Positions 3,294 through 21,750 are shown, counted from the stretch's first letter. The stretch: 64,000 nucleotides of DNA from Patescibacteria group bacterium (GCA_032117075.1 JAUMAA010000003.1:41574-105573), one strand, 5' to 3'. Notes: a model not told the origin generated them from the sequence alone. Made by a program: numbers and translations.

Positions 3294-3674
3294 TTATTTT
3301 TTATCATCTTCTGATTCATCTGAGTCTACTGATTCACTTGAATCTTCATCTTCTTCACTTATTTCTTCATATATAAAATCATCTTCGTACCTTAAATCAA
3401 TGATAGGATTGTTAAGAATTACTTTAGAAACTAAATATGCAGAAGTTGCTAAGAAAACTAGACCATATACAACTGTTTCAACAAATTTATATTTAAAACC
3501 TGGATCTTGAAGTGCTTCAAGGTTTACTAATGAAATACCGTAAAGGGTGTATGTGTAATAAATATATACGAAAGAAAGTAGAGCAGAGATAACAGCAAGT
3601 ACTATTGATAAATGTTTGTGTAAATAAATTTTTGTCATATGTATAAAATATAATACTAAATTATAATTTGTCAA
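3294..3674 (-). CDS. Small membrane protein with a poly-acidic C-terminal tail
   Basis: Two predicted TM helices, then EEISEEDEDSSESVDSDESEDDKK. Start uncertain (possibly the internal Met). Confidence 0.5.
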   Translation of the reverse strand: MTNYNLVLYFIHMTKIYLHKHLSIVLAVISALLSFVYIYYTYTLYGISLVNLEALQDPGFKYKFVETVVYGLVFLATSAYLVSKVILNNPIIDLRYEDDFIYEEISEEDEDSSESVDSDESEDDKK

Positions 3675-4214
3675 TTATCTAACTACCGAGGAAAAATGTT
3701 CCATAAATTTTTTTAATTTTGGATCTATTACTACAGTACAATAAGGGTAGTTTTGGTTGTTGATATAAAAGTTTTGATGATAATCTTCAGCTGAATAAAA
3801 TTTTTCAAATTTTTTTAGTTCGGTAACTAAAGGAGAATTATATTTCCCAGACTCATTCAACTCTGCAATTTTTTTCATAGTTAGGGCGAGCTGTTCGGGA
3901 GAATTAACCAATACAATTGATCTATATTGAGTACCAACATCATTTCCCTGTCTATTTAAAGAAGTAGGGTCATGAATTTCAAAAAATATATCTAAAATTG
4001 AATCTAACGAAATTTGATTTTTATTGAAAGTTACCTCCACAACTTCAGCATGCCCCGTAACACCCGAAGAAACTTCATCATAAGTTGGATTATCGGTCTT
4101 ACCTCCGCTATAACCACTCACAACTTTCTCAATGCCTCTAACTCTTTGAAATACAGCTTCTAAACACCAAAAGCAACCTCCGCCTAAATAAATTTTTTCA
4201 AAATTTTCATTCAT
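3675..4214 (-). CDS. msrA: Peptide methionine sulfoxide reductase MsrA
   Basis: GCFWC active-site motif near the N-terminus and the conserved MsrA core (HDPTSLNRQGNDVGTQYRS). Confidence 0.9.
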   Translation of the reverse strand: MNENFEKIYLGGGCFWCLEAVFQRVRGIEKVVSGYSGGKTDNPTYDEVSSGVTGHAEVVEVTFNKNQISLDSILDIFFEIHDPTSLNRQGNDVGTQYRSIVLVNSPEQLALTMKKIAELNESGKYNSPLVTELKKFEKFYSAEDYHQNFYINNQNYPYCTVVIDPKLKKFMEHFSSVVR

Positions 4215-4283
4215 AAAATAATTATTGCATTAGAAAACAAAATTAGTATAAGATTAATAAAGTAAAAATTTATTAAGGAGATT

Positions 4284-5000
4284 ATGCCCACAATAAAAAA
4301 TAATCATGGATTTGGAGCAGTTCCTTTCCTAGCAGTATTTGCTTTAGTTCTTACAGGTACATATATTGGATACAGTTATTACAACAATAATTCTCAGGTT
4401 TCTATAGAACCTATAAATTTAGAAAATCTCTCTGCAGTAAGCACTGCAGAAAATCCATTAATGAACTAAGGGGGTGTTCTTCAAGCTAACACAGGAAACT
4501 TTAATCCAGGAAATCAACCATTTTACTGGTCATATATTGATGATAGAAAACCTGGAATTTGGAATATTACTTACTATTTTACTGGAAGAAATGTCAAAAC
4601 TCTTGAAAAAGCTATGGAAAAAATAAAAAGTTCAGGTTTTATCTCTTTTAGAGATTCAAAAAAACCTTGCTACCCAGTAACTTCAAGACTAGGAATATGG
4701 GATACTTATCCAGTTGAAATTAAAAAGCTTGCGGATGATTTCTATCTAATGACAGTAAAAAATGTTAAAACTTACTTTAATTCTGAAGAAGACAAAAGAT
4801 GTAGAGTAAATAATACTGTAGTAGCATTCTTCTATGGACTAAAAAATAATGAATATGTTACAGCACCAAAAAATTCTTTCCCTATTCCCGCTTCTATATA
4901 CTTTAAAACTCCTTCAAATTCTAGGTCTGGAGTTGCATCACCAGCAGCTGTTGATAATGCACCAAAAGTTGATGTAAGTGGATTAAAAAGGATCGAGTAA
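4284..5000 (+). pseudogene. Secreted/membrane-anchored protein ORF interrupted by one in-frame TAA (4467-4469); the two ORF-track pieces 4284-4469 and 4614-5000 are in the same frame
   Basis: Translation continues without any further stop for 48 codons between the TAA and the next ATG. The N-terminal piece has a signal/TM segment and the distal piece is hydrophilic. Confidence 0.4.
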
Positions 5001-5020
5001 TTTAATTTCTCTTTCCAAGA

Positions 5021-5052
5021 AAGCGGTTGGGTTTTACCCAACCGCTTTTTTA
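5021..5052 (+). terminator. Rho-independent terminator
   Basis: aagcggttgggt-ttta-cccaaccgctt followed by TTTTTAT. Confidence 0.7.
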
Positions 5053-5103
5053 TTTAATGTTTTTTCAATTTACTTATTAGTAAATTTTTGATAGATTAAA
5101 GTA

Positions 5104-5790
5104 ATGTCTAAGTTAGATGTTTTTCTCGATTTTATAGTTAAGTTATATCTTAAACTTTACTTTATAAACAAAAAAATAAATAAATTTTTTTCATTAATTT
5201 TTAACTTTATTTTAGAAAAAAGAACTTTCATTTTTGCTGTTATTTTTGTTTTCTTTTTTGTAGCATTAATTGACTTTCAAACTAAAAATCAAAAGCCCAC
5301 TAGAATGCAAGTTTCAAAATACAATATTTATACTGCTGAACCTTTAGTTTTAGGATCTTCAAGTGTGAGTTTGCATGGAATGGATTCAAGGGCTAAAAAA
5401 ATTGAGGGAGTTTTTAGAGCATACAACTGTCCCATGGCAGGAACTGGGCAGTATATCGTAGAACAAGCCGACAAAAATGGAATACCTTACTGGATTGTAG
5501 CTGCAATTGCCTTTCAAGAATCAATTTGTGGGAAGCTGACCCCTGAGAAGAATGGTGTAGAAAGCTATAATTCCTGGGGATGGGCGGTATATGGATCTTC
5601 AAGTAAGGCATTTAATAGCTATGAGCACGGGATTAAAGTTGTTTCAGAATACCTCTCTAAGCGATTTTTCAAGCAGGGTATTACCGAAACATGCGATATT
5701 ATGAAAGTTTATACCCCTCCAAGCAAAGGATCTTGGTGTAGAGGAGTGAATTATTTTGGTGAAAAAATACAAAATTTTGGAACTAAATAA
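5104..5790 (+). CDS. Membrane-anchored putative peptidoglycan hydrolase (GH73 glucosaminidase-like / lysozyme-like fold)
   Basis: N-terminal TM. AIAFQESICGK ... NSWGWAVYG ... YTPP blocks resemble the GH73 A.Q..ESGWG / N.FGI pattern. Paralogous to 5941-6450. Confidence 0.45.
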   Translation: MSKLDVFLDFIVKLYLKLYFINKKINKFFSLIFNFILEKRTFIFAVIFVFFFVALIDFQTKNQKPTRMQVSKYNIYTAEPLVLGSSSVSLHGMDSRAKKIEGVFRAYNCPMAGTGQYIVEQADKNGIPYWIVAAIAFQESICGKLTPEKNGVESYNSWGWAVYGSSSKAFNSYEHGIKVVSEYLSKRFFKQGITETCDIMKVYTPPSKGSWCRGVNYFGEKIQNFGTK

Positions 5791-7569: not shown

Positions 7570-7962
7570 GTGTCAAACAAAGATGTGAAAATCTTTACAC
7601 TTGATAATAAGGGAAACCTTTTATTAGGTGCAAGAATTGGACTGGGACAAGGAAAATGGGCACGGTACCCATCTATTGGGAGTGTCAGTCCTATCAGGGT
7701 TGATATCCTTAAACCTGGGGATATCATTTGGTTTGCCCACTTTATGGAATTCCAATTTCCTGGAGAGCAAAATTGGGAGCATGAAAAACTTCTAATTCCC
7801 TTACCAGAAAATATGGTTGCTGTAGAAAAGATTGGGACTGAAAGATGCATTCTTGTAACCCCGAAAGAGACACAAATCATCAAGTTAGGTGAGGTTAAGT
7901 TTCTTTCAGACCAAACAGCAGTGTTTTTTCAAGAACCTGGAATCAGACCATCGCTACATTAA
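7570..7962 (+). CDS. Hypothetical protein (GTG start)
   Basis: AGGAGG RBS 6 nt upstream of the GTG. GC-enriched. No family recognised. Confidence 0.5.
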   Translation: MSNKDVKIFTLDNKGNLLLGARIGLGQGKWARYPSIGSVSPIRVDILKPGDIIWFAHFMEFQFPGEQNWEHEKLLIPLPENMVAVEKIGTERCILVTPKETQIIKLGEVKFLSDQTAVFFQEPGIRPSLH

Positions 7963-7975
7963 TCACTTTGCGAAG

Positions 7976-8006
7976 CGGGACGAGTGCGACAAAAGCACCC
8001 GTCCCG
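7976..8006 (+). terminator. GC-rich hairpin (cgggacgagtgc...gcacccgtcccg); putative terminator
   Basis: Stable inverted repeat after the stop, but the U-tail is weak. Confidence 0.4.
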
Positions 8007-8068
8007 ACAATCTAAATTATTAAAATATTTTCAAAAATACAAAGTTTGGTGATAAAATATAGAAGTTT

Positions 8069-8153
8069 GGGCGAGTGGTGGAATTGGTATACACGCATGC
8101 CTTAGGAGCATGTTCCGCAAGGATTGAGAGTTCGAGTCTCTCCTCGCCCACCA
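8069..8153 (+). tRNA. tRNA-Leu (anticodon UAG), 85 nt with long variable arm, CCA encoded
   Basis: Folded by hand: acceptor GGGCGAG/CTCGCCC, anticodon stem catgc/gcatg with loop cuUAGga, long variable arm, T-arm gagag-TTCGAGT-ctctc, terminal ACCA. Confidence 0.9.
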
Positions 8154-8207
8154 AAAATTATTATCAAATTTCTTAAACAATATTAACTTAAATCAATTTC
8201 TAAGTTC

Positions 8208-8714
8208 ATGAATTTGTTATATAATTACAATATGAATCCTGAAATTTTAATCTTTATTCTACTAATTTTGTGTCTTATTCAGTTAGGAGTATTAATGCTC
8301 TTTTTATCAAAAGGGTTTAATGATTTACATAAAAATGACATAAAACTCTATAATATATTTAAAAATAATATAGAGCCCCAAAATGTAACATTTACTCCAG
8401 AAGTCAAAAATTTAGTAAGTTTGTCAAATGATATATGGAGATTTTCTAAGCATGTAGACAAAAACAATGACAAACTAGTTAATTTATCGGAGAGATTAAT
8501 TAGAGGATTGGATAAATTCGATATAAAAATAACTGATTTTACAGGTCAAAAAATTAGCGAAGATTTAAATGTAAAATCAGAGGTGATAAAAAATGACTCC
8601 AGTCTGGAAGATAACTATGTAATTAGTACAGAGTCACCGGCAATTTTTTATAAAGATAAAATGTATCAGCAGGGATTTGTTTTAATTAATAAAATAAATA
8701 AATCAGAAAGTTAA
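8208..8714 (+). CDS. Membrane-anchored protein; C-terminal half weakly GrpE-like (speculative)
   Basis: N-terminal TM. The C-terminal region (GLDKFDIKITDFTGQKISEDLN ... MYQQGFVLINK) loosely matches the GrpE C-terminal pattern. Its stop is 1 nt before the Hsp70 ATG. Confidence 0.5.
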   Translation: MNLLYNYNMNPEILIFILLILCLIQLGVLMLFLSKGFNDLHKNDIKLYNIFKNNIEPQNVTFTPEVKNLVSLSNDIWRFSKHVDKNNDKLVNLSERLIRGLDKFDIKITDFTGQKISEDLNVKSEVIKNDSSLEDNYVISTESPAIFYKDKMYQQGFVLINKINKSES

Positions 8715-8715
8715 T

Positions 8716-11226
8716 ATGGATAGTAAGAATATAAAAATAGGTATAGATTTAGGTACAACCAACTCAGAAGTATGTATTAGCAATAAAGGAAATCTTGAAA
8801 TAATCAAGAATAGATTTGGAAATGAGTTTACCCCCTCAGTTCTTTGGATTGATAAATCTTTAAATAAGCAAATAGGACAAAAAGCTTATGAAAATTTCTT
8901 TAACCTATTAGAACAGCAAAATGTTAAATCAGAAATTAAAAGACTGATGGGAACTAATGAAAAAGTCAAATTTCCTAGACTTGATAAAGAAATGACTCCT
9001 GAAGAGATTTCTGCAGAAATTTTAATCTCTCTAAAAGAAGATATTAAAAGAAAATATAATGATTTTGATTTAAACTATGCTGTTATAACAGTACCGGCAT
9101 ATTTTAGTATTCTTCAATCAGAAGCTACTAAAAGGGCTGGTGAAATTGCTGGTTTTAAGCACGTAGTTTTATTACAGGAGCCGATTGCGGCTGCAGTAGC
9201 ATACGGATTTATGAATTCAACTAACGAAACTTGGGTTGTTTATGACTTAGGTGGAGGAACTTTTGATGTAGCTTTAGTTAACTCTAAAGACGGGCTGCTT
9301 TCTGTTATAGCTCATAATGGAGATAACTTTTTAGGTGGAAAAGATTTTGATGCAGAAATTGTTTATCAGAAAGTTATTCCAGAATTAAAAGAACAGTTCA
9401 ACTTAGAAAACCTTTCAATTGAGGATGAAGAATTTAAAAAAATATTTAATATTTTGAAATATAGAGCTGAACAAGCCAAAAAAGAACTAACTTCTTATGA
9501 AGAAACTTCTATCGATATTGATAATATCGGTGAAGACGAAGATGGGGTAGAAATTAATACCACTATTAAACTCACAAAAAAAGAATTTGAAAATATTATT
9601 AGAGATAAAGTTTCAAAAACTATAGAATTAACCAAAGAGACTATAAAATCCTCAGGAATTGATCAAAACATGATTAAAAAAGTAATTTTAGTAGGGGGAC
9701 CTACTCAAATTCCTTATATTAGAGAAAGAATTGCCAAAGAATTAAAAATTGAGGTTGACACCTCATTAGACCCACTTTCTGCGGTTGCTAAAGGAGCTTG
9801 TATCTATGCCATGAGTCAAAATGTCCCAGATACTGTTTTTGATAAAAATAAAAAACAATTAATGGAGGGGGAGATGAGCTTAAAATTGGAATATAGGTCA
9901 TTATCGTCAGAAATTGAAGAAAATATTTATGGTTTATTAGAAAATATAGAACAAGATAAAGAGTATTTTGTACAAATACAATCAGATTCAAATCATTTCA
10001 GCAGTCCAAAAACCAAAATAAATAATGGAAAGTTTTTTAAAGAAGTTAATTTAGAAAAAAATAAAACAAATATTTTTTATATTTATATCTTCGATGAAAA
10101 AGGTAATATTATCAAAACTTCCCCAGATTCATTTTCAATAACTCAAGGCTTATCAATTGCAGGAGCACCTATTTCACATTCAATTGGTATTGTAGTAGCC
10201 GATAGAAATGAAAGCTTAGGAGAAAAAGAATTTAGAGATACATATTTAGTAGTTTTTGAAAAAGGATCAATTCTTCCTTTAAAAGATACTAGGACATTTA
10301 AAACAGTTAAAAAACTAGTGAAGAATGAAAAGAATGCAACATTAGATATTGTAGTAGGAGAGGGGGAGTCTAAAATTCCAGATAGAAATACATTTATTTG
10401 TACACTAGGAATAAATGGCCAAGAACTTCCGTACGATCTTCCATCAGGAACTGAAGTTGAAATCACAATTGAAGTAAACGAATCAAGGGAGGTATCAGTA
10501 GCTGCTTACTTCCCATTAATAGATAAAAAGTATAACGGCAGATCTTCTTTACTTTCTAGAGAAGTGGATTTAGAAAAAATTGAAGAAGAATTAGAAACTG
10601 AAAGCATGCGAATTGATGACATCTCAAAAAATATATCAGAGAATGCTTCAGACGAACTTAGAGAAAAACTTAGAAGTGTATACCATACAGTAAGAGGAGC
10701 TACAAGCGGTGTAGAGGAGAAAGAAAAAGCCGATAAAGAACTTAGAGAATTAAAAGTTTCTATTGATGAGCTTCAAGAGAAATCTGAAATGCCAAAACTA
10801 ACCAATCTATTCAGTGAATTAGTAAAGGATTCTAAAGAGTTTATTGAAACATATGCTTCGGAAGAAAAAAAAGATATATTTACTAAAAAACTTACACATT
10901 TAGAGACAGACGGGAACGAGGCTATAAAAAATAAAGACAAAAGAAAAATAAATCAAGTAATTGAATTACTTGAAGATTTAAAAGGAGAAATCATCTATTC
11001 TAACGATGCAACATGGATTTATCAGTTTAGAAAACTCTCAACTGAAGTTCTAAATTATACAAACTATTCAGATGCTCAATATTATATTAAAAAGGGCAAC
11101 GATGCTTTAATAAAAAACGATGTCGAAGAAATTAAAAGATGTGTTAGAAATTTATTACAGCTTCTAGAGAGGCCAGAAACCTTTGAGGGAAGTGATAGAA
11201 ACACAATATCTGGTATAAGAAAGTAA
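8716..11226 (+). CDS. Atypical Hsp70-family protein (836 aa): complete actin-like NBD, about 100-aa insertion, SBD-beta-like region, long helical C-terminal extension
   Basis: IGIDLGTTNS, VITVPAYF, DLGGGTFDV, LVGGPTQIPYIRE, DPLSAVAKGA Hsp70 NBD motifs. A later segment (IVVGEGESKIPDRNTFICTLGINGQ..PSGTEVEITIEVNESREVSVAAY) resembles the DnaK SBD-beta motif (V.qGER......LG.F.L.GI.....G.P.IEVTFDID.NG). Confidence 0.85.
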   Translation: MDSKNIKIGIDLGTTNSEVCISNKGNLEIIKNRFGNEFTPSVLWIDKSLNKQIGQKAYENFFNLLEQQNVKSEIKRLMGTNEKVKFPRLDKEMTPEEISAEILISLKEDIKRKYNDFDLNYAVITVPAYFSILQSEATKRAGEIAGFKHVVLLQEPIAAAVAYGFMNSTNETWVVYDLGGGTFDVALVNSKDGLLSVIAHNGDNFLGGKDFDAEIVYQKVIPELKEQFNLENLSIEDEEFKKIFNILKYRAEQAKKELTSYEETSIDIDNIGEDEDGVEINTTIKLTKKEFENIIRDKVSKTIELTKETIKSSGIDQNMIKKVILVGGPTQIPYIRERIAKELKIEVDTSLDPLSAVAKGACIYAMSQNVPDTVFDKNKKQLMEGEMSLKLEYRSLSSEIEENIYGLLENIEQDKEYFVQIQSDSNHFSSPKTKINNGKFFKEVNLEKNKTNIFYIYIFDEKGNIIKTSPDSFSITQGLSIAGAPISHSIGIVVADRNESLGEKEFRDTYLVVFEKGSILPLKDTRTFKTVKKLVKNEKNATLDIVVGEGESKIPDRNTFICTLGINGQELPYDLPSGTEVEITIEVNESREVSVAAYFPLIDKKYNGRSSLLSREVDLEKIEEELETESMRIDDISKNISENASDELREKLRSVYHTVRGATSGVEEKEKADKELRELKVSIDELQEKSEMPKLTNLFSELVKDSKEFIETYASEEKKDIFTKKLTHLETDGNEAIKNKDKRKINQVIELLEDLKGEIIYSNDATWIYQFRKLSTEVLNYTNYSDAQYYIKKGNDALIKNDVEEIKRCVRNLLQLLERPETFEGSDRNTISGIRK

Positions 11227-11227
11227 A

Positions 11228-12655
11228 ATGTCATTTCATAATAATTCTTATTTTATACTAGACTTAAATTCTAATTCAACCGATAAACAAATTCTAAAAA
11301 AATCAAACAATATGCTTTTAAAGATTAAAGCAGAAATAGATATAAATGAAGAAATTCATCATGAATTAGATTTAAGAATTGAAAGAAACGAACATACTAT
11401 AAATGAAGCGACTAAAAAACTAACTTTTCCAAAGAAAAAATTAGAAGAATTTTTTTTCTGGTTTGAGCTAGAGAATGAAACAGACCATCATTTCTATAAA
11501 CTTCTTTCACAAAAAAACTTCATCCAAGCTATTAAATTTTTAAAAAAAGGAATTGAAGAAGATGAGTTAAGAAAATTTAAATACGAGAAAAACTTAGCAC
11601 TATGTTTTCTACTTATGCTAAATATTGATTATGATGAATCTATACTTTTAGAATCGATAAATTTATGGAAAAAATTAATTCATAATTCAAGTTTTTGGGC
11701 TGAGTTTTTTGATAAATATAGAACAAAAGAAGAGGGACTGGTTAATAAAGATTTAATGATTGAATTTAAATCTGAAATAGAAAATTTGATCTTTGAAGAA
11801 TATGAACATATTTCTAGCAGCTATCCAAAAGAAAGAATTATTGAAAAATTATTTACAATTTTAAAACCTCAAAATACTAGTATCTTTTCAAAATATTTAG
11901 AAAAATATATCTCTAAAGTTAACTCAATTTTAGAAAAATTTAATTCAATGGAATTCAAAGATAATAAAATAGGACAAATACAGAAAAATAAAATATCTGA
12001 AAATTTAGATAAATTAAAAGAATTATTTAATTATTTTGAATCTTTAGGGCTAGAAAATGAATCATCTATTAAAATACTGGGGGACGAGGTAGCCCAAAAT
12101 CTAGAGAGCCTATCTATTAAAATTAACAATCAGATTAAAGATTATGAAACATCTTATAAAATACTATCTATAGCATTGAAGTTTGTTGAAAGCAGCTCTA
12201 TTAAAAAAGGTATTGAAACAAATCTTGCAATAATAATTGAAAATAGAGAAGTTATAGCATTAAACACAATATATGAACTAATAAGAAGTGCAAAATTTGC
12301 ATCTGCATTAGTTTCAATTGATTATTTACTAAAGGATAGAAACACAAAAGATGAAACCAAAAAAACTTTAAGGGAACTAAAAGATAAAATTAAAGTGAAC
12401 AGAGATATGGATAAAACACTAATGAAAAACAAACCACTTTTATTTGATATTTTTGGGTTTGGGTTATTGTTGTATGGAGATATTAGATATCTTACATTTT
12501 TTTACATTCCAGTCTGCCCAATTTCAAGCTATAATACAATTAATAATTATGATGGTTCTACTTCATTTTTAGGAGAAAAGGAACTGGATTCCTTTTACTA
12601 TGGTTGGAAAGTAGTCTTCATAGCAGGAGTAATAATTTGGTTGTTAAGTAACTAA
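11228..12655 (+). CDS. Hypothetical helical protein with two C-terminal TM helices; N-terminus resembles a J-domain with degenerate HPD (speculative)
   Basis: YFILDLNSNSTDKQILKKSNNMLLKIKAEID aligns to the J-domain consensus YYEILGVSKTAS..EIKKAYRKLAMKYHPD, with HPD replaced by AEI. Hydrophobic C-terminus. Confidence 0.5.
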   Translation: MSFHNNSYFILDLNSNSTDKQILKKSNNMLLKIKAEIDINEEIHHELDLRIERNEHTINEATKKLTFPKKKLEEFFFWFELENETDHHFYKLLSQKNFIQAIKFLKKGIEEDELRKFKYEKNLALCFLLMLNIDYDESILLESINLWKKLIHNSSFWAEFFDKYRTKEEGLVNKDLMIEFKSEIENLIFEEYEHISSSYPKERIIEKLFTILKPQNTSIFSKYLEKYISKVNSILEKFNSMEFKDNKIGQIQKNKISENLDKLKELFNYFESLGLENESSIKILGDEVAQNLESLSIKINNQIKDYETSYKILSIALKFVESSSIKKGIETNLAIIIENREVIALNTIYELIRSAKFASALVSIDYLLKDRNTKDETKKTLRELKDKIKVNRDMDKTLMKNKPLLFDIFGFGLLLYGDIRYLTFFYIPVCPISSYNTINNYDGSTSFLGEKELDSFYYGWKVVFIAGVIIWLLSN

Positions 12656-12657
12656 AA

Positions 12658-13152
12658 GTGGGAAAATACGAATACGATACAAATTTAAATAATGATATAC
12701 CCTTTGAGACAAATCCTAATGTTACAAATAAAAAAGAACCTAATAGATTTGGTAGTGGAATAATTGTTTTAGTTATCATAGGAATTTTAGGTTACTTAAT
12801 CTCAACAAATAAAAACACTTCTATAAACAGTTCAAACAATGGTTCCAGCGATTCGAGTATTGTAGAATCAGGAAACGATACATATATTTGTTCTAAATAT
12901 AATATTTCTAAACTAAAAGATCTTACCCCAAGCTCAATCCTAAAAAATGAAATTGACGATTTAGAAAATAAACAAAATAAACTTGAAAGAGAATTGGATT
13001 CTATAGATCCTGATAGCAATCCTTATTTATATAATTCCAAAGTTGACGAATATAATGATATTGTTAGTAAATTAAAAGTAAAACTAAGCAACTACAATCA
13101 ACAAGTTGATAACTATAATGATTATTTAATTAAAAATTGTAATAAAAAATGA
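12658..13152 (+). CDS. Membrane-anchored coiled-coil protein
   Basis: Single TM (GIIVLVIIGILGYLIST), then a Ser/Asn-rich linker and a heptad-like helical region. Overlaps the next gene by 4 nt. Confidence 0.5.
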   Translation: MGKYEYDTNLNNDIPFETNPNVTNKKEPNRFGSGIIVLVIIGILGYLISTNKNTSINSSNNGSSDSSIVESGNDTYICSKYNISKLKDLTPSSILKNEIDDLENKQNKLERELDSIDPDSNPYLYNSKVDEYNDIVSKLKVKLSNYNQQVDNYNDYLIKNCNKK

Positions 13153-14216
13153 AACCCTTACTTTATAATAATTATAAAATTTCAGAAAACCTATTTGTAG
13201 TGAAAAGAGAAGAAAAAATTTTCTTTACTGAAATTTATAGTCTTTCAGATGGAAATTATCTTTTCTTATTTTTAAATATTAAACCAGATGAAGTGGTAAA
13301 TATAAATCAAGAATTAGAAATTGTAAAATTAAACATTGGAGGAGAAAACTATTTAGGTGTAATAGCTGACAGCTTTTCAGGAGAAAAAATTTATGAAATT
13401 TCTGAAAAACTCACTCAAATAAAAGGTTTGGATAGTGTTGCTGGAATGAAAGAATTGAAAAATCTTTTATATAATGAGGTCATAGAACCCTTAAGAAACC
13501 CAGAAAAGTTTAAAAAATTTAAAATATCAATACCTAACGGAATTTTACTTTTTGGACCTCCAGGCTGTGGTAAAACTTATATTGTAAAAAAATTGGCCGA
13601 AGAGTTAGGTTATTCGTTTATAGAACTTAACCCTTCTTCAGTTGCATCCCCCTATATTCACGGTGCAGTTTCAAATATCGGAAAAGTTTTTGAGATGGCA
13701 AGACTTCAAGCACCGTCTATTATCTTCATTGATGAAATAGAAGGATTACTTCCAAAAAGAGAAGATTTAGGATCCCATGCAGATACTAAAAAAGAGGAAA
13801 TAAATGAATTTTTACTCCAGCTAAATAATTCCAGTGAGAGCAATGTTTTAGTTGTAGGAGCTACAAATAGACCATCTATTATTGATTCGGCAATTTTAAG
13901 ATCAGGAAGAATGGACAAAAGAATATATGTAGGTCCACCGGATTATGAGTCAAGAAAAGAGTTGTTCAAACTTTCTCTATTAGGCAGACCTTTTGATAAT
14001 AAAATTAATTTGGACAAACTAGCTAAAGTTACTGAAAATTATGTAAGTTCTGATATATCTTTGATAGTTAATCAATCCGCAAGAAATGCACTTCAAAATA
14101 ACCAAGAGTATATAACAGAAGAAAATATTTTAAATATAATAAAAAATACTATTCCATCCATCTCAGAAGAGGATTTGAACTACTATCAGAACTATAGAAA
14201 TCTTGAAAGGTGGTAA
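13149..14216 (+). CDS. AAA+ ATPase, classical clade (Vps4/katanin/FtsH-like single AAA domain) with an N-terminal domain of about 120 aa
   Basis: Walker A GPPGCGKT, Walker B IIFIDEIE, SRH ATNRPSIIDSAILRSGRMDKRIYVGPPD. Confidence 0.85.
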   Translation: MKPLLYNNYKISENLFVVKREEKIFFTEIYSLSDGNYLFLFLNIKPDEVVNINQELEIVKLNIGGENYLGVIADSFSGEKIYEISEKLTQIKGLDSVAGMKELKNLLYNEVIEPLRNPEKFKKFKISIPNGILLFGPPGCGKTYIVKKLAEELGYSFIELNPSSVASPYIHGAVSNIGKVFEMARLQAPSIIFIDEIEGLLPKREDLGSHADTKKEEINEFLLQLNNSSESNVLVVGATNRPSIIDSAILRSGRMDKRIYVGPPDYESRKELFKLSLLGRPFDNKINLDKLAKVTENYVSSDISLIVNQSARNALQNNQEYITEENILNIIKNTIPSISEEDLNYYQNYRNLERW

Positions 14217-14265
14217 AATAATTCTTTGAAACCTTCTGAAAGAATTTAATTTTTGAATTGGTTAA

Positions 14266-14997
14266 TTATTTCTTTTTGATAATCATTAAAATTTCTTTAG
14301 TTTCAGAACCTTGACTTTGAGGTATTTCTTTAAAACTTACTTCGCAAGAAAGACCCAGGGCTTCAATAATATCTAAATAATATTTTTGAGATTTATTCCT
14401 TAATTCTTCAAGATTTCTATATCTAAGATTTGATTTGATAACAGGAAATATCCTAACCTCACCACCTACCTTTAAAATATTAAAAACATTTGTTAAATAC
14501 TTTTTAAATTCTTTTTCGCCTTCCTCATGAAGGTAGAGTCCAGGCCCAAAAGTATCGACAATTAAATCAAAAGCCCCATCCTTAAAGGGCAAGTTTGGAG
14601 CAAAGGCAGCCACAGCCAACCCATCACTTCCTTTAAGCCTTTCTTCTCTTACCTTTTGAGGATCCTCATCTTTTCCTGCAAAGTAATAATCTTTATTGTT
14701 ATCAATAATTTTATTAGTGTAATAAATTGACTGGATATCTCCTTTTTGATCTCTTTCAACCACACTTAAAAAATCTTTTTTGCTAATAGCTAGTGTTGGG
14801 TCCAAAGAAATAACTTGTAAATCAGGTCTTTTAGCAGAAAGACCCGCTGCAAAATTTCTAAAAACACCGCTTCCAACTTCAAGAACTCTAGCTTTTTCTG
14901 GTAAATTTTGAATAAAGGCATCTGACAGATCTAAATAAGGGGAGAGCTGTTCAAAACTTCTATTGGTTACATAAAAACTTGTTTCTTTATTTATCAT
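14266..14997 (-). CDS. Class I SAM-dependent methyltransferase-like protein
   Basis: Motif I VLEVGSGV, acidic end of beta2 (SLDP), FDLIVDTFGPGLYL, LKVGGEVRIF. Paralog of 15008-15808. Confidence 0.55.
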   Translation of the reverse strand: MINKETSFYVTNRSFEQLSPYLDLSDAFIQNLPEKARVLEVGSGVFRNFAAGLSAKRPDLQVISLDPTLAISKKDFLSVVERDQKGDIQSIYYTNKIIDNNKDYYFAGKDEDPQKVREERLKGSDGLAVAAFAPNLPFKDGAFDLIVDTFGPGLYLHEEGEKEFKKYLTNVFNILKVGGEVRIFPVIKSNLRYRNLEELRNKSQKYYLDIIEALGLSCEVSFKEIPQSQGSETKEILMIIKKK

Positions 14998-15007
14998 AAA
15001 TTTATTA

Positions 15008-15808
15008 TTAAACTGTTTTCTTTAAAACTAATACTAATGCTTCTTCTTTACTAATAGTATCTTGAATTATTTTAAAATTTAAATCGAAATTTAGGTTATC
15101 TTTTTGGCAAATATTTTTATAAAATTCATGTGTCGTTTGTATGTCTAATTTAATATCGTCATCTTGATCTAGATTGCCATTTATTTTATCAACTTGAACC
15201 TGAACATCTACGGCTGGAAAAATTCTTGCTACACCTCCCGGTTTTAAAATTCGATAAATTTCCTTCAAATATTTATCAAGTGAAGGATTTTCTTTTGTTT
15301 GCAAATAAATACCTGGTCCATAAATATCAATTATTAAATCTATAGATTCATCTCTAAGGGGAATCTGAGGTGCCAGTGCTGCAATAGGAAAACCAGTCTC
15401 GTGTGCTCTTTGGATTCTTGTTTTGGAAAATTCTTTTTGGTTTTCAACCTTAATTGAATCTTTTTCAGGTTTTAATTTTCTATCTTGGTACCATTTAACC
15501 TTTCTAAGGTATTGGGCATACTTAAACTTACCGCTATTCTTTGGGTCTTTTCTATAGTAAATATCAAAAGAATTTTTATTATCTGATCCAATTATAATTG
15601 TAGGATCAATAGTAATTGGCTTAATATCAGGTCTTAATTTCTTCACTCCTTCAGCAAAATTTTGGTCCAATCCACCCCCAATTTCTAAAACAACGGCATT
15701 TTCAGGTAATGATTTGATATAGTTTTCGCTTAACCCTGACATCCAGAGGAGCTCTTTTAATTCTCGGTTAGTTAAATAAAATTCAGGTATATTTGACATT
15801 TCTGACAT
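15008..15808 (-). CDS. Class I SAM-dependent methyltransferase-like protein (tandem paralog)
   Basis: VLEIGGGL, TIDP, IDLIIDIYGPGIYL, LKPGGVARIF. Same architecture as 14266-14997. Confidence 0.55.
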   Translation of the reverse strand: MSEMSNIPEFYLTNRELKELLWMSGLSENYIKSLPENAVVLEIGGGLDQNFAEGVKKLRPDIKPITIDPTIIIGSDNKNSFDIYYRKDPKNSGKFKYAQYLRKVKWYQDRKLKPEKDSIKVENQKEFSKTRIQRAHETGFPIAALAPQIPLRDESIDLIIDIYGPGIYLQTKENPSLDKYLKEIYRILKPGGVARIFPAVDVQVQVDKINGNLDQDDDIKLDIQTTHEFYKNICQKDNLNFDLNFKIIQDTISKEEALVLVLKKTV

Positions 15809-15859
15809 ATATTAGTTATAATATGCTCCCGTTCGTTTTTCAATCTAGGGAGACTAAGT

Positions 15860-16048
15860 ATGTACTGCAAGTTCTGCAGGCAAAAGTTGCGAGAGAAAAT
15901 TTGCCATTATTGCATGGCAAATATCGACAAACATTTTTGTATCTTTTGCAGAGAAGATGCGAGAGAAGGGAACCATAATTTCTGTAGATTAGTTATCTCC
16001 GAGATGGCAAGAATCGTCCCTAGAGAAAAGAAACATATTAGAAAGTAG
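15860..16048 (+). CDS. Small Cys-rich zinc-ribbon-like protein (62 aa)
   Basis: CKFC...CHYC...CIFC...NFC spacing. GGGAGA RBS. Followed by a strong hairpin. The overlapping alternative-frame ORF 15793-15978 is judged less likely. Confidence 0.4.
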   Translation: MYCKFCRQKLREKICHYCMANIDKHFCIFCREDAREGNHNFCRLVISEMARIVPREKKHIRK

Positions 16049-16061
16049 AGTAGAGATAGAA

Positions 16062-16087
16062 GGGGCGGGTCACAAGTGACCCGCCCC
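16062..16087. terminator. Bidirectional GC-rich hairpin (ggggcgggtcac-aa-gtgacccgcccc) between convergent genes
   Basis: Perfect 12-bp stem. Confidence 0.5.
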
Positions 16088-16108
16088 AAAACCCAAAATA
16101 TTTAATTT

Positions 16109-16423
16109 CTATTCAGTTATTTTGTATTTTTGTAAATCTTTAAATTGTTTATCACCATGTTGTTTATTAAATGCCTCTGTCATGTCTTCATTGCATTTGA
16201 AGATATTTCCACCTTTATGTTTGTTTCTAAAATCAGAAACATCGTATTTTTCACCTCTAACAATAATTACACATTTCTCAACATTAGAATTTGCAACCTC
16301 GTTCTGAATTCTAAATAAAGGAGCTTTTCCCATGGAGGAATTATTGTAAATAAAATAAGCAGCAACAGCTCCTAATGTTACTAAAATACCAGCTATGATT
16401 AAAATTATTTTTTGATTATTCAT
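16109..16423 (-). CDS. Membrane-anchored cytochrome b5-like heme-binding domain protein (tentative)
   Basis: N-terminal TM. YDVSDFRNKHKGG...NEDMTEAFNKQHG resembles the cyt-b5 pattern YDVT.F...HPGG...G.DAT..F...HS. Confidence 0.45.
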   Translation of the reverse strand: MNNQKIILIIAGILVTLGAVAAYFIYNNSSMGKAPLFRIQNEVANSNVEKCVIIVRGEKYDVSDFRNKHKGGNIFKCNEDMTEAFNKQHGDKQFKDLQKYKITE

Positions 16424-16452
16424 AAAATTATTATATATTATACTGTTGCTAT

Positions 16453-17142
16453 ATGAATCAAATAATTATATTTCACGAATTTGAAATTGAAATCATCCGA
16501 AAAAGAATTAAAAATATTCATCTTAGAATAAATCTTGAAGGCCAGATTACTTTAAGCACCCCAAAAAATATCAAGGAAGACTATTTGTTAGAGTTTCTTG
16601 AGTCAAAAATAGAATGGATCCGAACTTCTTTAAAAAAAACAGAAGCAAAAATAAAATACAGTAATAAAAAACTAACACACGGAGAAAAACATTATCTTTT
16701 TGGAAAAGAGCTCGTTTTAAACCTTCAAGAAGAAAAAGTTAAAAAAAGTGAAATATTTCTTTTAAATAATACTAATCTAGTAATGAGGGTACACCCTACA
16801 GTTAGTCAAAGAACTAGAGAAAAGTATATGCAAAAATGGTACGAAGAAAAATTAATTTTAGAAACAGAGAAATTTTTTGAAAAATGGGAAGAAGAATTAG
16901 GAGTAAGTAAAAAAGAATTAGTAATTAAAAAAATGAAAGGTAAATGGGGCTATTGTGAATGTAGAAGAAAGGTTATTTGTTTAAACACAGAGTTAGCTAA
17001 AAGAAACATTGATTTTGTTGAATATGTTGTCCTCCACGAACTGTGCCATTTGCTTGTCCCTAACCACGGACCAGACTTTAAAAAACTACTTAATATTCAT
17101 ATGCCTAAGTGGAAAATTATTAAAAACTCTGAAGAAATCTAG
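16453..17142 (+). CDS. YgjP/DUF45-like (M48/WLM-type) metal-dependent hydrolase
   Basis: C-terminal HExxH (VVLHELCHLLVPNHGPDF) typical of the YgjP family. Confidence 0.7.
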   Translation: MNQIIIFHEFEIEIIRKRIKNIHLRINLEGQITLSTPKNIKEDYLLEFLESKIEWIRTSLKKTEAKIKYSNKKLTHGEKHYLFGKELVLNLQEEKVKKSEIFLLNNTNLVMRVHPTVSQRTREKYMQKWYEEKLILETEKFFEKWEEELGVSKKELVIKKMKGKWGYCECRRKVICLNTELAKRNIDFVEYVVLHELCHLLVPNHGPDFKKLLNIHMPKWKIIKNSEEI

Positions 17143-17155
17143 TAACCTATAATAT

Positions 17156-17183
17156 TTGCAAAGGTAGAAAATTTTGTTATAAT
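17156..17183 (+). promoter_or_regulatory. Sigma70-like promoter TTGCAA-16nt-TATAAT for small peptide cassette A
   Basis: TTGCAA 17156-17161, TATAAT 17178-17183. The predicted TSS falls at the start of the GTTGCTGAGGT box (17190-17200). Confidence 0.45.
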
Positions 17184-17213
17184 ACTGGGGTTGCTGAGGT
17201 AGAGGGAGGTGCT

Positions 17214-17444
17214 ATGAGTTTGATATACTCGATAATTGGTTTTTGTTGGAAGTTTTTGCTAGCCATCTACAATATAGCCATCAAATTGGGGATTGTAGCA
17301 TCAGCTGTAGGATCAATAACTTTGTTGATGATTTTCTTAATGGGATATATCTCATTAGATTATCTCTGGAAAGGAGAAATAGTTATACTTGTAAGTGGCC
17401 TAATTTTAGGCTTTTTAAACAAGGTACTATTTGACGATCTTTAA
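17214..17444 (+). CDS. Small hydrophobic membrane peptide (76 aa), family with 21751-21924 (shared Y..KGEI motif)
   Basis: GAGGGAGG RBS. Two or three TM helices. Flanked by GTTGCTGAGGT (17190-17200) and its perfect complement ACCTCAGCAAC (17471-17481). Confidence 0.5.
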   Translation: MSLIYSIIGFCWKFLLAIYNIAIKLGIVASAVGSITLLMIFLMGYISLDYLWKGEIVILVSGLILGFLNKVLFDDL

Positions 17445-17511
17445 AAAAATTACTCCAAACTAATCTATTAACCTCAGCAACAACACAATTTTTCCTATAT
17501 AATGATTAAAT

Positions 17512-18231
17512 ATGAATAAAGAATATAATATTTCCAGAAGTAAAATTGATTTATTTATTGAATGTCCAAGATGTTTTTATCTTGATGTAAACGGGATTGT
17601 AAAAAGACCATCAGGACCTGGTTTTTCATTAAATTCTGCCGTAGACGAACTTTTAAAAAAAGAATTCGATTTACTTAGAGAAGAAAAAAAACCTCACTCA
17701 TTAATGGAGAAATTTGGAATAAGAGCAATCCCATACCAACATCCAGAATTAGATAAATTTCGACACAACTTTACCGGAGTTAGATATAAACATCCAAACG
17801 GAATTACTTTTTTTGGAGCTGTTGATGACCTTTGGATCAATGAAAATGGAGAAATTCATGTTGTTGACTATAAAGCAACCTCTACATCTGCGGAAGTTAC
17901 TTTAGAAGGGGAATACAAAGAAGGATACAAAAGACAAATTGAAATTTACCAATATCTTTTATCTAAAAATAATTTTCCTATTTCAAATATTGGATATTTT
18001 GTCTATGCAAATGCTAGAAAAGATTTAGATGCTTTCAATGAAAAATTGATTTTTGATGTCAAAATTTTACCTTACGAAGCAAATAATTCTTGGATTGAGG
18101 AGGTAATTAGTAATCTTTACAAAACATTAAGTAGCGAAGAGATACCTCTGCCAAATGAAACTTGTAAATATTGTGATTACATCAAAAAATATAATCAAAG
18201 TTTAAATAATCAACAATTGAGATTGTTTTAG
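17512..18231 (+). CDS. Cas4-like PD-(D/E)xK nuclease (DUF83/RecB-family) with four Cys
   Basis: N-terminal ECPRCFYL (Cas4-like CPR..YL), motif II VDDLW, motif III VVDYKAT, QxxxY (RQIEIYQYLL), C-terminal CKYCDY. Confidence 0.65.
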   Translation: MNKEYNISRSKIDLFIECPRCFYLDVNGIVKRPSGPGFSLNSAVDELLKKEFDLLREEKKPHSLMEKFGIRAIPYQHPELDKFRHNFTGVRYKHPNGITFFGAVDDLWINENGEIHVVDYKATSTSAEVTLEGEYKEGYKRQIEIYQYLLSKNNFPISNIGYFVYANARKDLDAFNEKLIFDVKILPYEANNSWIEEVISNLYKTLSSEEIPLPNETCKYCDYIKKYNQSLNNQQLRLF

Positions 18232-18245
18232 AAAATTAAGTAGAT

Positions 18246-18274
18246 GGCGGGAGTTGGCTATACCAACTCCCGAT
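18246..18274 (+). terminator. Rho-independent terminator
   Basis: ggcgggagttgg-ctata-ccaactcccg followed by ATTTTCGG. Confidence 0.6.
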
Positions 18275-18284
18275 TTTCGGTCTC

Positions 18285-18413
18285 TTAGCAAGTTCCTTGA
18301 CATTCTTCTTGAGTATTAGAAAAAGTCATCGAAATTAATTTCTTGCACTCCTTGTTAAGATAGTATAAAGAAATAATAGAACTTACCATCGCGAGAACCA
18401 CAAAAATAGTCAC
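18285..18413 (-). CDS. Possible small ORF (42 aa, GTG start; hydrophobic N-terminus, Cys-rich C-terminus) not in the ORF track
   Basis: GGGAGG RBS 7 nt before the GTG. Preceded by a leader of about 45 nt that is about 80% identical to the leader of the 25674-26177 gene. GC-enriched. Confidence 0.3.
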   Translation of the reverse strand: MTIFVVLAMVSSIISLYYLNKECKKLISMTFSNTQEECQGTC

Positions 18414-18466
18414 CTCGTCACCTCCCTAAGTTATTAAAATCTCCCAATTAATTTTACACCCAAAAT

Positions 18467-19042
18467 CTAGTTATAAAAGTAAGCCATTGTTAAAGCAGTA
18501 ATTAAAAAAAATACTGGTAAAAAAATTATAATTCCTATATTTCTTAATTTGAAAATAAAATAAGAAGATACTAATAAAATTAGAAACTCAGGAAGAAGAT
18601 ACCAAGATAAAAAATAGTAATTAAAAAAACTATCGGGGTAGTCAAAATAAATATCAAAACCATAAATACCGCTATTAAAAGGTGCTAGAAGAGAAATCCC
18701 ACCAACTAAAAAATCCAGAAAAAGGTGGGATAAAACCCCTACCAAAAATACTAAATTTACTATTTTCCAGAATTTTTGATTTTTATTTAGTAAATAATAA
18801 ATCATAAAATTTACAAATAAATAAAAAAATAAGTAGGGAAGGACAGAATGTGAGAAAAGTTTTCTGTGATCTAAGTCATTTATAAAAAAGCCTAAAATTA
18901 AATCAAAATCAGGAAACACTGAGCCAACAATTCCAACTAGAAATATAAAATTTGATTGAAATTTATCAAGTAAAATATCTTTTTTATTTCGAACAAGTAA
19001 ATAGGTTAATGGGACCCCTATTAAAGAATGAGATAAAACCAT
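18467..19042 (-). CDS. Polytopic membrane protein (possibly DUF457/YdjM-like membrane-bound metal-dependent hydrolase)
   Basis: Five to six TM helices. The N-terminal MVLSHSLIG pattern resembles the DUF457 start (M..THxxxG). Confidence 0.5.
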   Translation of the reverse strand: MVLSHSLIGVPLTYLLVRNKKDILLDKFQSNFIFLVGIVGSVFPDFDLILGFFINDLDHRKLFSHSVLPYLFFYLFVNFMIYYLLNKNQKFWKIVNLVFLVGVLSHLFLDFLVGGISLLAPFNSGIYGFDIYFDYPDSFFNYYFLSWYLLPEFLILLVSSYFIFKLRNIGIIIFLPVFFLITALTMAYFYN

Positions 19043-19063
19043 AATTAGATTATATCAATAAAA

Positions 19064-19086
19064 AGGGGTGCCTTTCAGGCACCCCT
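19064..19086 (-). terminator. Rho-independent terminator for the upstream minus-strand gene
   Basis: aggggtgcc-tttca-ggcacccct; the minus strand is followed by TTTTTATT. Confidence 0.5.
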
Positions 19087-19103
19087 CAATTTCAAATTAA
19101 TAA

Positions 19104-19361: not shown

Positions 19362-19393
19362 AAATTACTACTTAATTAAATATACACAATTAA

Positions 19394-20133: not shown

Positions 20134-20169
20134 ATTAAGTTTATCTTATCATAAGATTATGATAGAATA

Positions 20170-21655: not shown

Positions 21656-21679
21656 TCTAAATAAAAATAACCTATAATT

Positions 21680-21708: not shown

Positions 21709-21750
21709 ATATTCGTTGCTGAGGTTAGATCATACGAGAGGAGATCTAAT

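Follow-up and report, generated by a model that had tools for sequence, protein, structure and literature searches.

An undescribed five-component Hsp70/AAA+ module in its membrane-anchored form in a Patescibacteria group bacterium, and a possible role in defence

We analysed a 64,000-nucleotide (nt) stretch of DNA from a Patescibacteria group bacterium (GCA_032117075.1 JAUMAA010000003.1:41574-105573), called the window here, in which positions 8,208 to 14,216 hold five tightly packed genes, named A to E below, for a GrpE-like protein, an Hsp70, a J-like protein, a membrane-spanning coiled-coil protein and an AAA+ ATPase (Table 1). They represent the membrane-anchored subtype of a five-component module that is widespread and undescribed. 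Computation shows the parts with the catalytic residues conserved in them, the strictness with which the parts occur together, the mobility of the unit and the defence genes that neighbour it. Because the module travels on mobile DNA and has anti-phage genes among its neighbours, it is probably a new chaperone-based defence system; to the more specific reading, in which an Hsp70/AAA+ conflict system coupled to the envelope acts against phages or other mobile DNA, we give about an even chance, judging from sequence. Neighbouring genes are separated by 1 nt (A/B and B/C) or 2 nt (C/D) or overlap by 4 nt (D/E), which reproduces exactly the coordinates and junctions of an earlier note made on this DNA, and a scan found no terminator-like site on the plus strand within A-E, although DNA of 30% GC makes such a scan weak.

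Gene B encodes a member of the Hsp70 superfamily, with the nucleotide-binding domain (NBD), the beta part of the substrate-binding domain (SBD-beta) and the helical lid all present. The protein matches Pfam HSP70 (PF00012) at 6.6e-80 over amino acids (aa) 8-365. Foldseek matches to its AlphaFold model (predicted local distance difference test, pLDDT, 79.7) are best to full-length DnaK, with ~790 columns aligned at E 1e-36, and a profile built from 35 homologues and compared with PDB weakly aligned aa 511-636 to DnaK 375-499, which is SBD-beta. In the interval between NBD and SBD some 90 aa (roughly 376-465) have no DnaK equivalent and are modelled as a separate beta domain. Pfam, the PDB profile, the AlphaFold model and the DnaK alignment thus agree with the earlier description of an Hsp70 with an NBD, an insertion, an SBD and a long helical tail. 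Residues D11, T14, K75, E155, D177, T182 and D184 of B correspond to D8, T11, K70, E171, D194, T199 and D201 of DnaK in a pairwise alignment, and the catalytic residues are invariant across the 35 homologues. Members of the family are ~836-840 aa long with ~50% identity over their full length, and the C-terminal tail, ..SGI(T/R)K, is conserved. B nevertheless lies outside the DnaK and HscA equivalogs: it scores 273.5 with the NCBIfam DnaK model NF001413 (cutoff 648) and 238 with the HscA model TIGR01991 (cutoff 708), and both matches are confined to the NBD.

The protein that follows, C, starts with a J-like domain. When the alignment of C N-termini was compared by hhalign with 10 canonical J domains (PF00226), the match had a probability of 94.2% (E 1.1e-7, 59 columns), as against 0.3-0.6% for two control alignments in the same comparison; single-sequence matches of C to J domains are weak (0.027 in Pfam, 0.14 in PDB). 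At the HPD position the family consensus reads K-I-D, and the window copy is degenerate (IKAEIDINEE). With HPD absent, C is J-like and not a canonical J-domain protein, as had been proposed from the window copy alone. The NBD contacts for the HPD motif in DnaK are R167, N170 and R151, and the corresponding positions in B are V151, Q154 and S135. The loss of HPD in C and of the contact residues in B suggests an interface that has co-evolved. In a structure model of C the alpha-solenoid is confident (pLDDT 80-94) and the J-like region is of low confidence in the window copy; a fold search with the model gave generic helical-repeat or designed-repeat matches only, so the solenoid receives no specific fold assignment. 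By the simple hydropathy scan used for all predictions of transmembrane (TM) segments here, C ends not in two TM helices, as first read, but in one clear helix preceded by a hydrophobic segment of low confidence. This end of the protein varies in the family: the window copy has a TM anchor, some relatives have a helical region followed by a TM segment, and others have a soluble beta-rich domain.

The first gene, A, encodes a GrpE-like protein and putative nucleotide-exchange factor. Eighteen of 20 A-family members individually match Pfam GrpE (PF01025), the best at 2.8e-9. The window copy by itself is too divergent and falls below detection, and is homologous to the other A proteins (1e-7 to 1e-33), so that the family, more than the single sequence, bears out the TM-anchored GrpE-like protein of the earlier note. 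No GrpE match was found when the A profile was compared with PDB. A Lys-rich segment follows the TM helix, which suggests that the C-terminal domain is cytosolic. In archaeal-labelled and proteobacterial versions A is soluble. A was recovered in all loci that reach far enough upstream.

Alignment of the D family upholds a TM-anchored coiled-coil protein. Its N-terminus, predicted to be cytosolic, carries an acidic-hydrophobic motif (family consensus FDLDFLDK), and a Ser/Thr/Asn-rich stalk follows the TM helix and leads to the coiled coil. The pair of Cys residues that brackets the coiled coil is retained in 57 of 61 sequences. In one locus (L022) a natural fusion places the D stalk and coiled coil after the TM helix of C. 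The coiled coil is predicted to face the outside of the cell on the strength of this fusion, of the Cys pair and of how charges are distributed about the TM helix.

E is a single-domain AAA+ ATPase of the classical clade, closest to the D2 domain of Cdc48/VAT. It matches Pfam AAA (PF00004) at 8.9e-35, together with AAA_lid_3, and has an N-terminal domain of ~95 aa that is beta-rich and has no Pfam match. Walker A, the Walker B Glu, the sensor-1 Asn and both Arg fingers are invariant in 71 of 71 sequences, the Walker B Asp is kept in 70 of 71, and the pore-loop residue is Y, F or W throughout. The best PDB matches are VAT and Cdc48/p97 D2 (~1e-90), and the 60 top matches listed are all Cdc48/VAT/p97, NSF-like, AFG2/SPATA5, NVL or Rix7. 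No TM segment was predicted and no MIT match was found in E. The clade given in the earlier note therefore stands by Pfam and motifs, and its Vps4/katanin/Msp1 subtype does not. Scores with the NCBIfam models for CDC48, FtsH, PAN and CdvC were 182, 180, 179 and 155, against cutoffs of 803, 600, 500 and 650; E, with one AAA domain and an N-domain of its own, does not have the architecture of any of the four.

Table 1. Features of the cassette and its immediate surroundings in the window
Feature	Position (nt)	Strand	Position (aa)	Remarks
tRNA-Leu (anticodon tag)	8069-8153	+		ARAGORN and Rfam; 55 nt 5' of gene A
Gene A	8208-8714	+		168 aa; membrane-anchored GrpE-like protein
A, predicted TM helix	8244-8306		~13-33	
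A, GrpE-like helical and beta region	8403-8687		~66-160	
Gene B	8716-11226	+		836 aa; non-canonical Hsp70
B, NBD	8716-9810		1-365	
B, extra beta domain	9874-10161		387-482	AlphaFold model
B, SBD-beta	10183-10542		490-609	AlphaFold model
B, helical domain	10570-11184		619-823	AlphaFold model
Gene C	11228-12655	+		475 aa; J-like domain, alpha-solenoid and C-terminal TM segment
C, J-like domain	11243-11452		~6-75	
C, alpha-solenoid scaffold			~70-390	
C, predicted TM anchor	12590-12649		455-474	
Gene D	12658-13152	+		164 aa, GTG start; bitopic coiled-coil protein
D, predicted TM helix	12748-12804		~31-49	
D, coiled coil	12889-13140			YNxKVDxYN repeats; bracketed by Cys78 and Cys161
Gene E	13149-14216	+		355 aa; single-domain AAA+ ATPase
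E, AAA core	13542-13934		132-262	
E, Walker A	13554-13577		136-143	
Methyltransferase-like paralogue 1	14266-14997	-		Tandem; converges on cassette
Methyltransferase-like paralogue 2	15008-15808	-		Tandem; converges on cassette

Related loci were collected from long contigs, 20 GTDB species-representative genomes, one IMG/VR contig and 80 metagenome contigs, with open reading frames (ORFs) called under genetic code 11; the peptide patterns used in retrieval bias this sample to the subfamily resembling that of the candidate phyla radiation (CPR). Gene order is the same in all ~105 CPR-type loci retrieved (90 non-redundant), and the A-E arrangement is therefore not due to chance; synteny in relatives, named beforehand as a test of the unit, is overwhelmingly upheld. 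In full, with the genes that may be missing in parentheses, the order is (Xre-type helix-turn-helix, HTH)-A-B-C-(Yip1 membrane protein)-D-E-(DUF6804 membrane protein). The cassette is complete in 63 of the 90 non-redundant loci, and among these 63 D is present in 49, DUF6804 in 30, the HTH gene, directly 5' of A, in 23 and Yip1 in 10. Record labels name many CPR classes, Omnitrophota, Woesearchaeota (DPANN) and a 'Thaumarchaeota' bin. In the three archaeal-labelled loci A and C are without TM segments and the D gene is missing. Conservation is uneven among the components: the bit-score ratios of the window to locus L004 are 0.88 for E, 0.64 for B, 0.36 for C, 0.31 for A and 0.18 for D. E is thus the most conserved component, with B next, and D is the fastest-evolving of the five; D and the C-terminal end of C are the least conserved portions and are modular.

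Some individual loci have peculiarities of their own. Code-11 in-frame stops split B in L007 and L009 and D in L026; the contigs carry Peribacteria and Gracilibacteria labels, L026 having none, and the split genes are consistent with an alternative genetic code and not with pseudogenes. The 'Thaumarchaeota'-labelled L024 has a second Hsp70 of 680 aa (3482-5524), 2 kb 5' of the cassette, which was considered as a co-resident canonical DnaK and rejected at 433 bits against the DnaK cutoff of 648, and directly 3' of the cassette an 862-aa protein (13197-15785) with a weak match to TraD-like coupling proteins. A gene for a trypsin-like serine peptidase lies at most ~1.5 kb from the cassette in L003 (14527-15522), L027 (7061-7924) and L029 (15729-17015); the homology search found it at 0 of the 80 metagenome loci, and the proximity is probably coincidental.

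The family is not confined to such genomes. A query with the B-specific C-terminal region found 947 cluster representatives at E <= 1e-3 and 579 at <= 1e-10, the full-length ones being mostly 815-850 aa, and in no source was a name attached to any of the 947. Relatives in cultured bacteria were found by tblastn against plasmids and, for one E. coli chromosome, by blastn; in RefSeq records PGAP gives their components generic names only. The cassette of E. coli HeN100 (NZ_CP044443.1, 4115537-4122320) has an A-like protein of 124 aa (9e-6), an E-like protein (2e-45), a D-like protein of 228 aa (5e-10) and a C-like protein of 580 aa with phmmer matches to CPR C proteins. The HeN100 proteins have the accessions WP_076487106, WP_076487107, WP_076487108, WP_133301085 and WP_133301086. 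The corresponding set in Shewanella is A-like 123 aa (2e-8), E-like (8e-42), D-like 481 aa (6e-9) and C-like 672 aa (phmmer matches), and in Vibrio it is A-like 114 aa (by eye), an E-like protein annotated as AAA ATPase, D-like 283 aa (2e-6) and C-like 539 aa (by eye). Polaromonas has an A-like ORF of 130 aa (5e-7), an E-like protein (6e-45), no annotated D-like protein and a C-like protein of 551 aa whose phmmer matches include the N-terminus; Haliscomenobacter has A-like 299 aa (1e-5), E-like (1e-77) and C-like 571 aa with a J-like N-terminus (1e-8), and a D-like protein was not detected there. Where a proteobacterial cassette has all five parts (E. coli HeN100 and Shewanella) the order is A-B-E-D-C; proteobacterial A and C proteins are soluble. 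The proteins in Shewanella and Vibrio that match the D profile, annotated as 'peptidoglycan-binding', have a predicted TM helix; for the E. coli protein the simple hydropathy scan gave no TM helix, and a hydrophobic stretch is visible by eye.

An order of GrpE-like, Hsp70 and J-like genes mirrors grpE-dnaK-dnaJ, and there is no canonical dnaK within the 64-kb window, so one might take A-B-C for a divergent housekeeping operon with D and E adjacent by chance. We regard this as very improbable. B reaches 273 bits where the DnaK model demands 648, and only through its NBD; C has no HPD; D and E accompany A, B and C in most loci; and the unit is mobile, occurring on plasmids or islands of Vibrio, Pseudomonas, Polaromonas and E. 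coli, bacteria that carry a canonical chromosomal dnaK.

The family is cargo of integrative mobile elements, and for the window copy the tRNA landmark alone is present. Among the 113 ORFs that flank the 20 species-representative loci, no Pfam families are commoner than the three domains of large serine recombinases (7, 6 and 5 ORFs), followed by DNA methylases, Fic/SoFic, SLFN-AlbA_2, TraG/VirB4-like ATPases and HEPN. In nine of the first 26 loci a recombinase gene is found at a distance of 73-1,470 nt from one or the other end of the cassette, and in a tenth (L022) at ~5.5 kb. Counted over the 28 non-redundant loci with at least 3 kb on both sides, a recombinase occurs within 3 kb in six, a tRNA gene within 1 kb in six, either one in eight and both in four. 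Several islands are compact, with the cassette as nearly their sole cargo: L109 runs from tRNA-Gln through HTH and A to E to a recombinase, L090 does so from tRNA-Asn, and L006, L026, L027, L025 and L054 are similar. The tRNA gene stands directly 5' of A at 71 nt in L059 (Pro), 105 nt in L109 (Gln), 214 nt in L042 (Gln) and 230 nt in L026 (Gln). The idea that the window cassette is an island at a tRNA gene, raised in the earlier note, gains support from these relatives lying between a tRNA gene and a large serine recombinase; the tRNA-Leu gene itself is likely a landmark of insertion and context, with no functional part in the module. The nearest relatives of the window cassette (63-68% identity) have unrelated flanks. 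At 90% identity GyrA of this organism falls in a cluster of 12 members and GyrB in one of 23, whereas the clusters of B and C have one member each, this organism; the contrast is consistent with an accessory gene, the gyrase being unusually conserved. The 3' end of tRNA-Leu is not repeated within window positions 7900-24000, and at tRNA/recombinase boundaries six of seven test loci showed no direct repeat of at least 12 nt; these negatives carry little information, since serine recombinases use very short core sites. In the Harrisonbacteria-labelled L021 an identical 57-nt hairpin with 17-nt arms (AAGCAGGCGGGCAAAAA / TTTTTGCCCGCCTGCTT) occurs on either side of the cassette, at 1945-2001 in the interval between recombinase and HTH gene and again at 9051-9107, past DUF6804; these hairpins may be element boundaries or terminators.

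Such linkage can also be read as a sign that the module serves its carrier, through entry exclusion, through aid in establishment or transfer, or through a counter-defence that unfolds an immune protein of the host. The recombinases, the Tn7-like transposition genes, the plasmids and the TraG/TraD/VirB4-like genes near the cassette are in keeping with this, as are the islands (L109, L090) that carry almost nothing else. We think a selfish function quite unlikely, since most loci with two flanks have no recombinase within 3 kb and the carriers, namely serine-recombinase islands, Tn7-like elements, plasmids and an integrase-type island, are unrelated to each other; a generic beneficial cargo therefore fits better than the biology of any one element. 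That just one contig from a viral catalogue and no deposited phage has the cassette also speaks against a selfish function.

A role in conflict with invading DNA is suggested instead by the company the cassette keeps. In E. coli HeN100 it lies in an integrated island with RADAR rdrB and a dptF fragment alongside, and in Shewanella it is the first cargo 3' of a Tn7-like tnsABCDE. The Polaromonas cassette is flanked by ZorA/OmpA-family genes and by a helicase and AAA pair, and that on a Haliscomenobacter plasmid (L032, NC_015512.1) has BREX brxL/pglZ and TerB in its surroundings. A PLD-like gene, a recombinase and a toxin-antitoxin pair are near it in Vibrio, and an AAA and helicase pair and a RES toxin in Aminobacter. 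Directly 5' of the cassette on the IMG/VR contig (L029, 962-6675) are a Gabija-like pair of OLD-TOPRIM and UvrD genes and a DUF2779/Cas4-like nuclease. Other defence-type neighbours among the loci are AbiEii, SLFN, HsdM, MazG-like, HEPN and SoFic. The IMG/VR contig has no virion genes in the 21 kb examined, and its assignment to a virus is therefore doubtful unless this is a cargo zone of a prophage. Carriage by phages was otherwise sought in 50,697 deposited phages, with none found to have the cassette, and matches in PHROGs were generic only. A phage origin was accordingly rejected, there being no deposited phage and the flanks of L029 being Gabija-like/Cas4-like rather than virion genes.

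The Haliscomenobacter plasmid also holds an E-like AAA+ protein (10218-12032) fused to an N-terminal kinase-like domain that is closest to MADS MAD6 (1.2e-32) and BREX PglW; the gene is followed by one for a TerB-domain protein. The kinase fusion points to an AAA+ N-domain that can be swapped as an input or output module.

We propose that, in the window subtype, A, C and D would tether both ATPases at the inner face of the membrane. D would display a disulfide-stapled coiled coil outside and its conserved N-terminal peptide to the cytosol, and might report or anchor an event at the envelope and link it to the engine. The ATP cycle of B would be tuned by partners of its own, A for nucleotide exchange and C for docking, the latter through a co-evolved J-like/NBD interface that takes the place of the canonical HPD-R167 contact and that could insulate B from host DnaJ proteins and C from host DnaK. 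DnaK hands substrates to ClpB; by analogy, B may pass a bound polypeptide to E, which would thread it and unfold or extract it. The client may be a protein of the invader located at the membrane, or one of the module's own components acting as a switch. Archaeal-labelled versions have no membrane segments, so the universal activity would have to lie with the A-B-C-E engine rather than with a membrane effector.

Read as an immune system, the module would be the first built on a complete private Hsp70 cycle, a Cdc48-like unfoldase and an envelope-spanning sensor, and shared by horizontal gene transfer between ordinary bacteria (E. coli, Vibrio, Shewanella) and CPR, Omnitrophota and DPANN, a claim that we make tentatively and hold at somewhat under an even chance. 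An invader protein would be recognised and then mechanically unfolded or extracted; alternatively, titration of the chaperone would serve as the sensor of infection, with no cutting of nucleic acid and no killing of the cell.

The earlier note had offered two functional options, and although the evidence favours a conflict or defence module, the less favoured one, a membrane proteostasis/extraction machine, deserves its hearing. On this account the module performs accessory quality control or extraction of membrane proteins, as Msp1 or Cdc48 does, for the benefit of a stressed host and with no part in conflict. Every recognisable component is a chaperone or unfoldase, with no toxin or nuclease among them; A, C and D are membrane-anchored in the window; the optional Yip1 and DUF6804 proteins are membrane proteins too; the threading pore loop of E is intact; and housekeeping genes often adjoin the cassette. 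We nevertheless judge it unlikely. Carriage beside serine recombinases, in Tn7-like slots and next to RADAR, Zorya, BREX or Gabija-like genes is not expected of a quality-control machine, and the distribution appears patchy. The fast-evolving, modular D protein and C ends resemble specificity determinants. Archaeal-labelled A and C without TM segments, with no D, and soluble proteobacterial A and C imply that membrane clients cannot be the universal substrate.

Several observations weigh against reading the module as a defence system. Within the cassette no recognisable effector (nuclease, NADase, protease or pore-former) was seen, and the step that stops an invader is one that we infer. Among the PADLOC defence models only IetA is matched, by E, and that match is a generic AAA one. 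Housekeeping genes often lie nearby as well, and the evidence from defence neighbours is guilt by association over ~10 loci, without a background control. A recombinase or tRNA gene is nearby in just 21-29% of the two-flank loci, and the window copy has no recombinase in its 64 kb, no HTH gene and no att repeat. The taxon labels are those of metagenome-assembled genomes, among which misbinning is possible. The single viral-catalogue contig and the absence of deposited phages count here too, but argue only against a phage origin.

Elsewhere the window (~30% GC) has housekeeping content, including pheT, a class A penicillin-binding protein gene, recG, gyrA/B and an aminoacyl-tRNA synthetase gene, as well as type IV pilus genes. 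The two methyltransferase-like genes that converge on the cassette are paralogues (mutual similarity E 2.5e-34); one matches Methyltransf_11 (class I) at 26 bits and the other falls below threshold. They do not belong to the locus: they occur solely beside the window cassette, are absent from every related locus, and were rejected as part of the module. Further along the plus strand, 2-4 kb 3' of the cassette, are genes for a YgjP-like/SprT-like HExxH metallopeptidase (16453-17142, 6.5e-49) and a Cas4-like PD-(D/E)xK nuclease (17512-18231; PDDEXK_1 3e-12, Cas_Cas4 6e-6), which may be further cargo of accessory or defence type. A unit of ~300-350 nt occurs twice, at 17169-17525 and 21694-21995; both copies are bracketed by the inverted 11-mers GTTGCTGAGGT ... 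ACCTCAGCAAC and share an identical 19-nt core, AACCTCAGCAACAACACAA. The first copy contains a hydrophobic ORF of 76 aa (17214-17444), and the second lies immediately 5' of tRNA-Val (22010). We read the unit as a possible small repeated element or structured RNA. A 1183-aa ORF on the minus strand (44230-47781) has no Pfam match at E <= 1e-5 and neighbours the type IV pilus genes (PilC-like 49170-50381, PilB-like 51512-53305).

The module invites comparison with known Hsp70 machines. It is like DnaK-DnaJ-GrpE plus ClpB in having an Hsp70, a J-type partner, a GrpE-type factor and a threading hexameric AAA+ protein, and A-B-C echoes the gene order grpE-dnaK-dnaJ. It differs in that B is not a DnaK equivalog and has an extra beta domain and a ~200-aa helical tail, the J-like domain has no HPD and B none of the R167/N170 contact residues, E is a single Cdc48-D2-like domain where ClpB has two rings and an M-domain, and all the genes sit in one mobile cassette with a membrane-spanning fifth component. 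The HscC-DjlC and HscA-HscB pairs of E. coli are alike in being paralogous Hsp70 proteins with co-chaperones of their own, and DjlC is anchored to the membrane by a C-terminal TM helix, as is C here. However, HscC (compared by description) has ~556 aa and no dedicated GrpE-like factor or AAA+ partner, DjlC and HscB retain the HPD that C has lost, and B matches the HscA models of NCBIfam in its NBD only, below cutoff. The import motor of mitochondria consists of mtHsp70, Tim44, Pam18, Pam16 and Mge1, where Mge1 is a GrpE homologue and Pam16 is J-like without HPD. Its membrane-tethered Hsp70, GrpE-type factor and HPD-less J-like regulator resemble the module by analogy and not by membership: homology is not shown beyond the domain families, the module has neither a translocon nor an HPD-bearing J partner in the place of Pam18 nor a tether like Tim44, and an AAA+ partner such as E is missing from the motor. 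The motor does set a precedent for control of a membrane-bound, polypeptide-pulling Hsp70 by a J-like domain without HPD.

Two published groups of conflict systems include Hsp70 proteins. CnuD of the CoCoNuT systems combines an Hsp70-like NBD/SBD with helical repeats in predicted defence operons near BREX and type I restriction-modification genes; it is tied to an McrB-like GTPase (NxD) and McrC/DUF2357, has degenerate Walker A-like motifs and is predicted to bind RNA (Bell et al., eLife 2024, PMC11090510). CnuD is without GrpE-like, J-like and AAA+ partners, whereas the module has all three. Membership in CoCoNuT type III was rejected, McrBC being absent from the window cassette and from the annotated related cassettes and the ATPase residues of B being intact. 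The GTPase-centric conflict systems recruit Hsp70, GrpE and DnaJ-FNIII proteins around GAP1-N2 or DO-type GTPases and tubulin/FNIII proteins, mostly in Actinobacteria and Firmicutes (Kaur et al., eLife 2020, PMC7159879). They lack a Cdc48-like AAA+ protein, which the module has in E, and membership was rejected because none of the examined cassettes showed a gene for a GTPase, a tubulin or an FNIII protein.

Among named defence systems, Zorya offers an inferred likeness in its envelope-spanning, sometimes peptidoglycan-binding part coupled to cytosolic ATP-driven proteins and in its place in mobile defence islands. Zorya is an ion-driven motor with nuclease/helicase, in contrast to the chaperone/unfoldase here, and PADLOC gave no homology of the module to ZorA-D. 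E matches the IetA models of PADLOC (1.9e-35) and the NCBIfam model IteA_antiphage (1.8e-30), the latter with a score of 106 against a cutoff of 510; it scores higher with CDC48, FtsH and PAN, and the cassette has no IetS-like protease. The resemblance of E to IetA is generic to classical AAA proteins. At E <= 0.1 A, B and C had no match in PADLOC-DB v2.0, D had one that is insignificant (PbeC, 0.015) and E had generic AAA matches only. In NCBIfam release 20 models for A, C and D are absent, and B has none that is specific to it. The openly searchable literature yielded no description of the module, only CnuD of CoCoNuT and the systems of Kaur et al., neither of which fits. The module is therefore a dedicated Hsp70 system that is unnamed in PADLOC, in NCBIfam (June 2026) and in searchable papers.

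If it is a defence system, the module would add a mechanistic class to immunity, based on a chaperone and an unfoldase with no obvious toxin, and would give a bacterial precedent for the hand-off from a membrane Hsp70 to an AAA+ protein, comparable to the logic of Cdc48, Msp1 and the import motor in eukaryotes. It is directly testable, since a cultured E. coli strain has a complete copy beside RADAR. Few other multi-gene cassettes have been found in bins labelled CPR, DPANN, Omnitrophota and Proteobacteria, and the module is thus a source of information on gene flow into ultra-small symbionts. Even if the module is not for defence, its HPD-less J-like protein and Hsp70 form a natural experiment in the rewiring of the Hsp70 cycle: Hsp70 systems have been heavily studied, yet here C has dropped the supposedly essential HPD motif together with the residues that contact it in its Hsp70.

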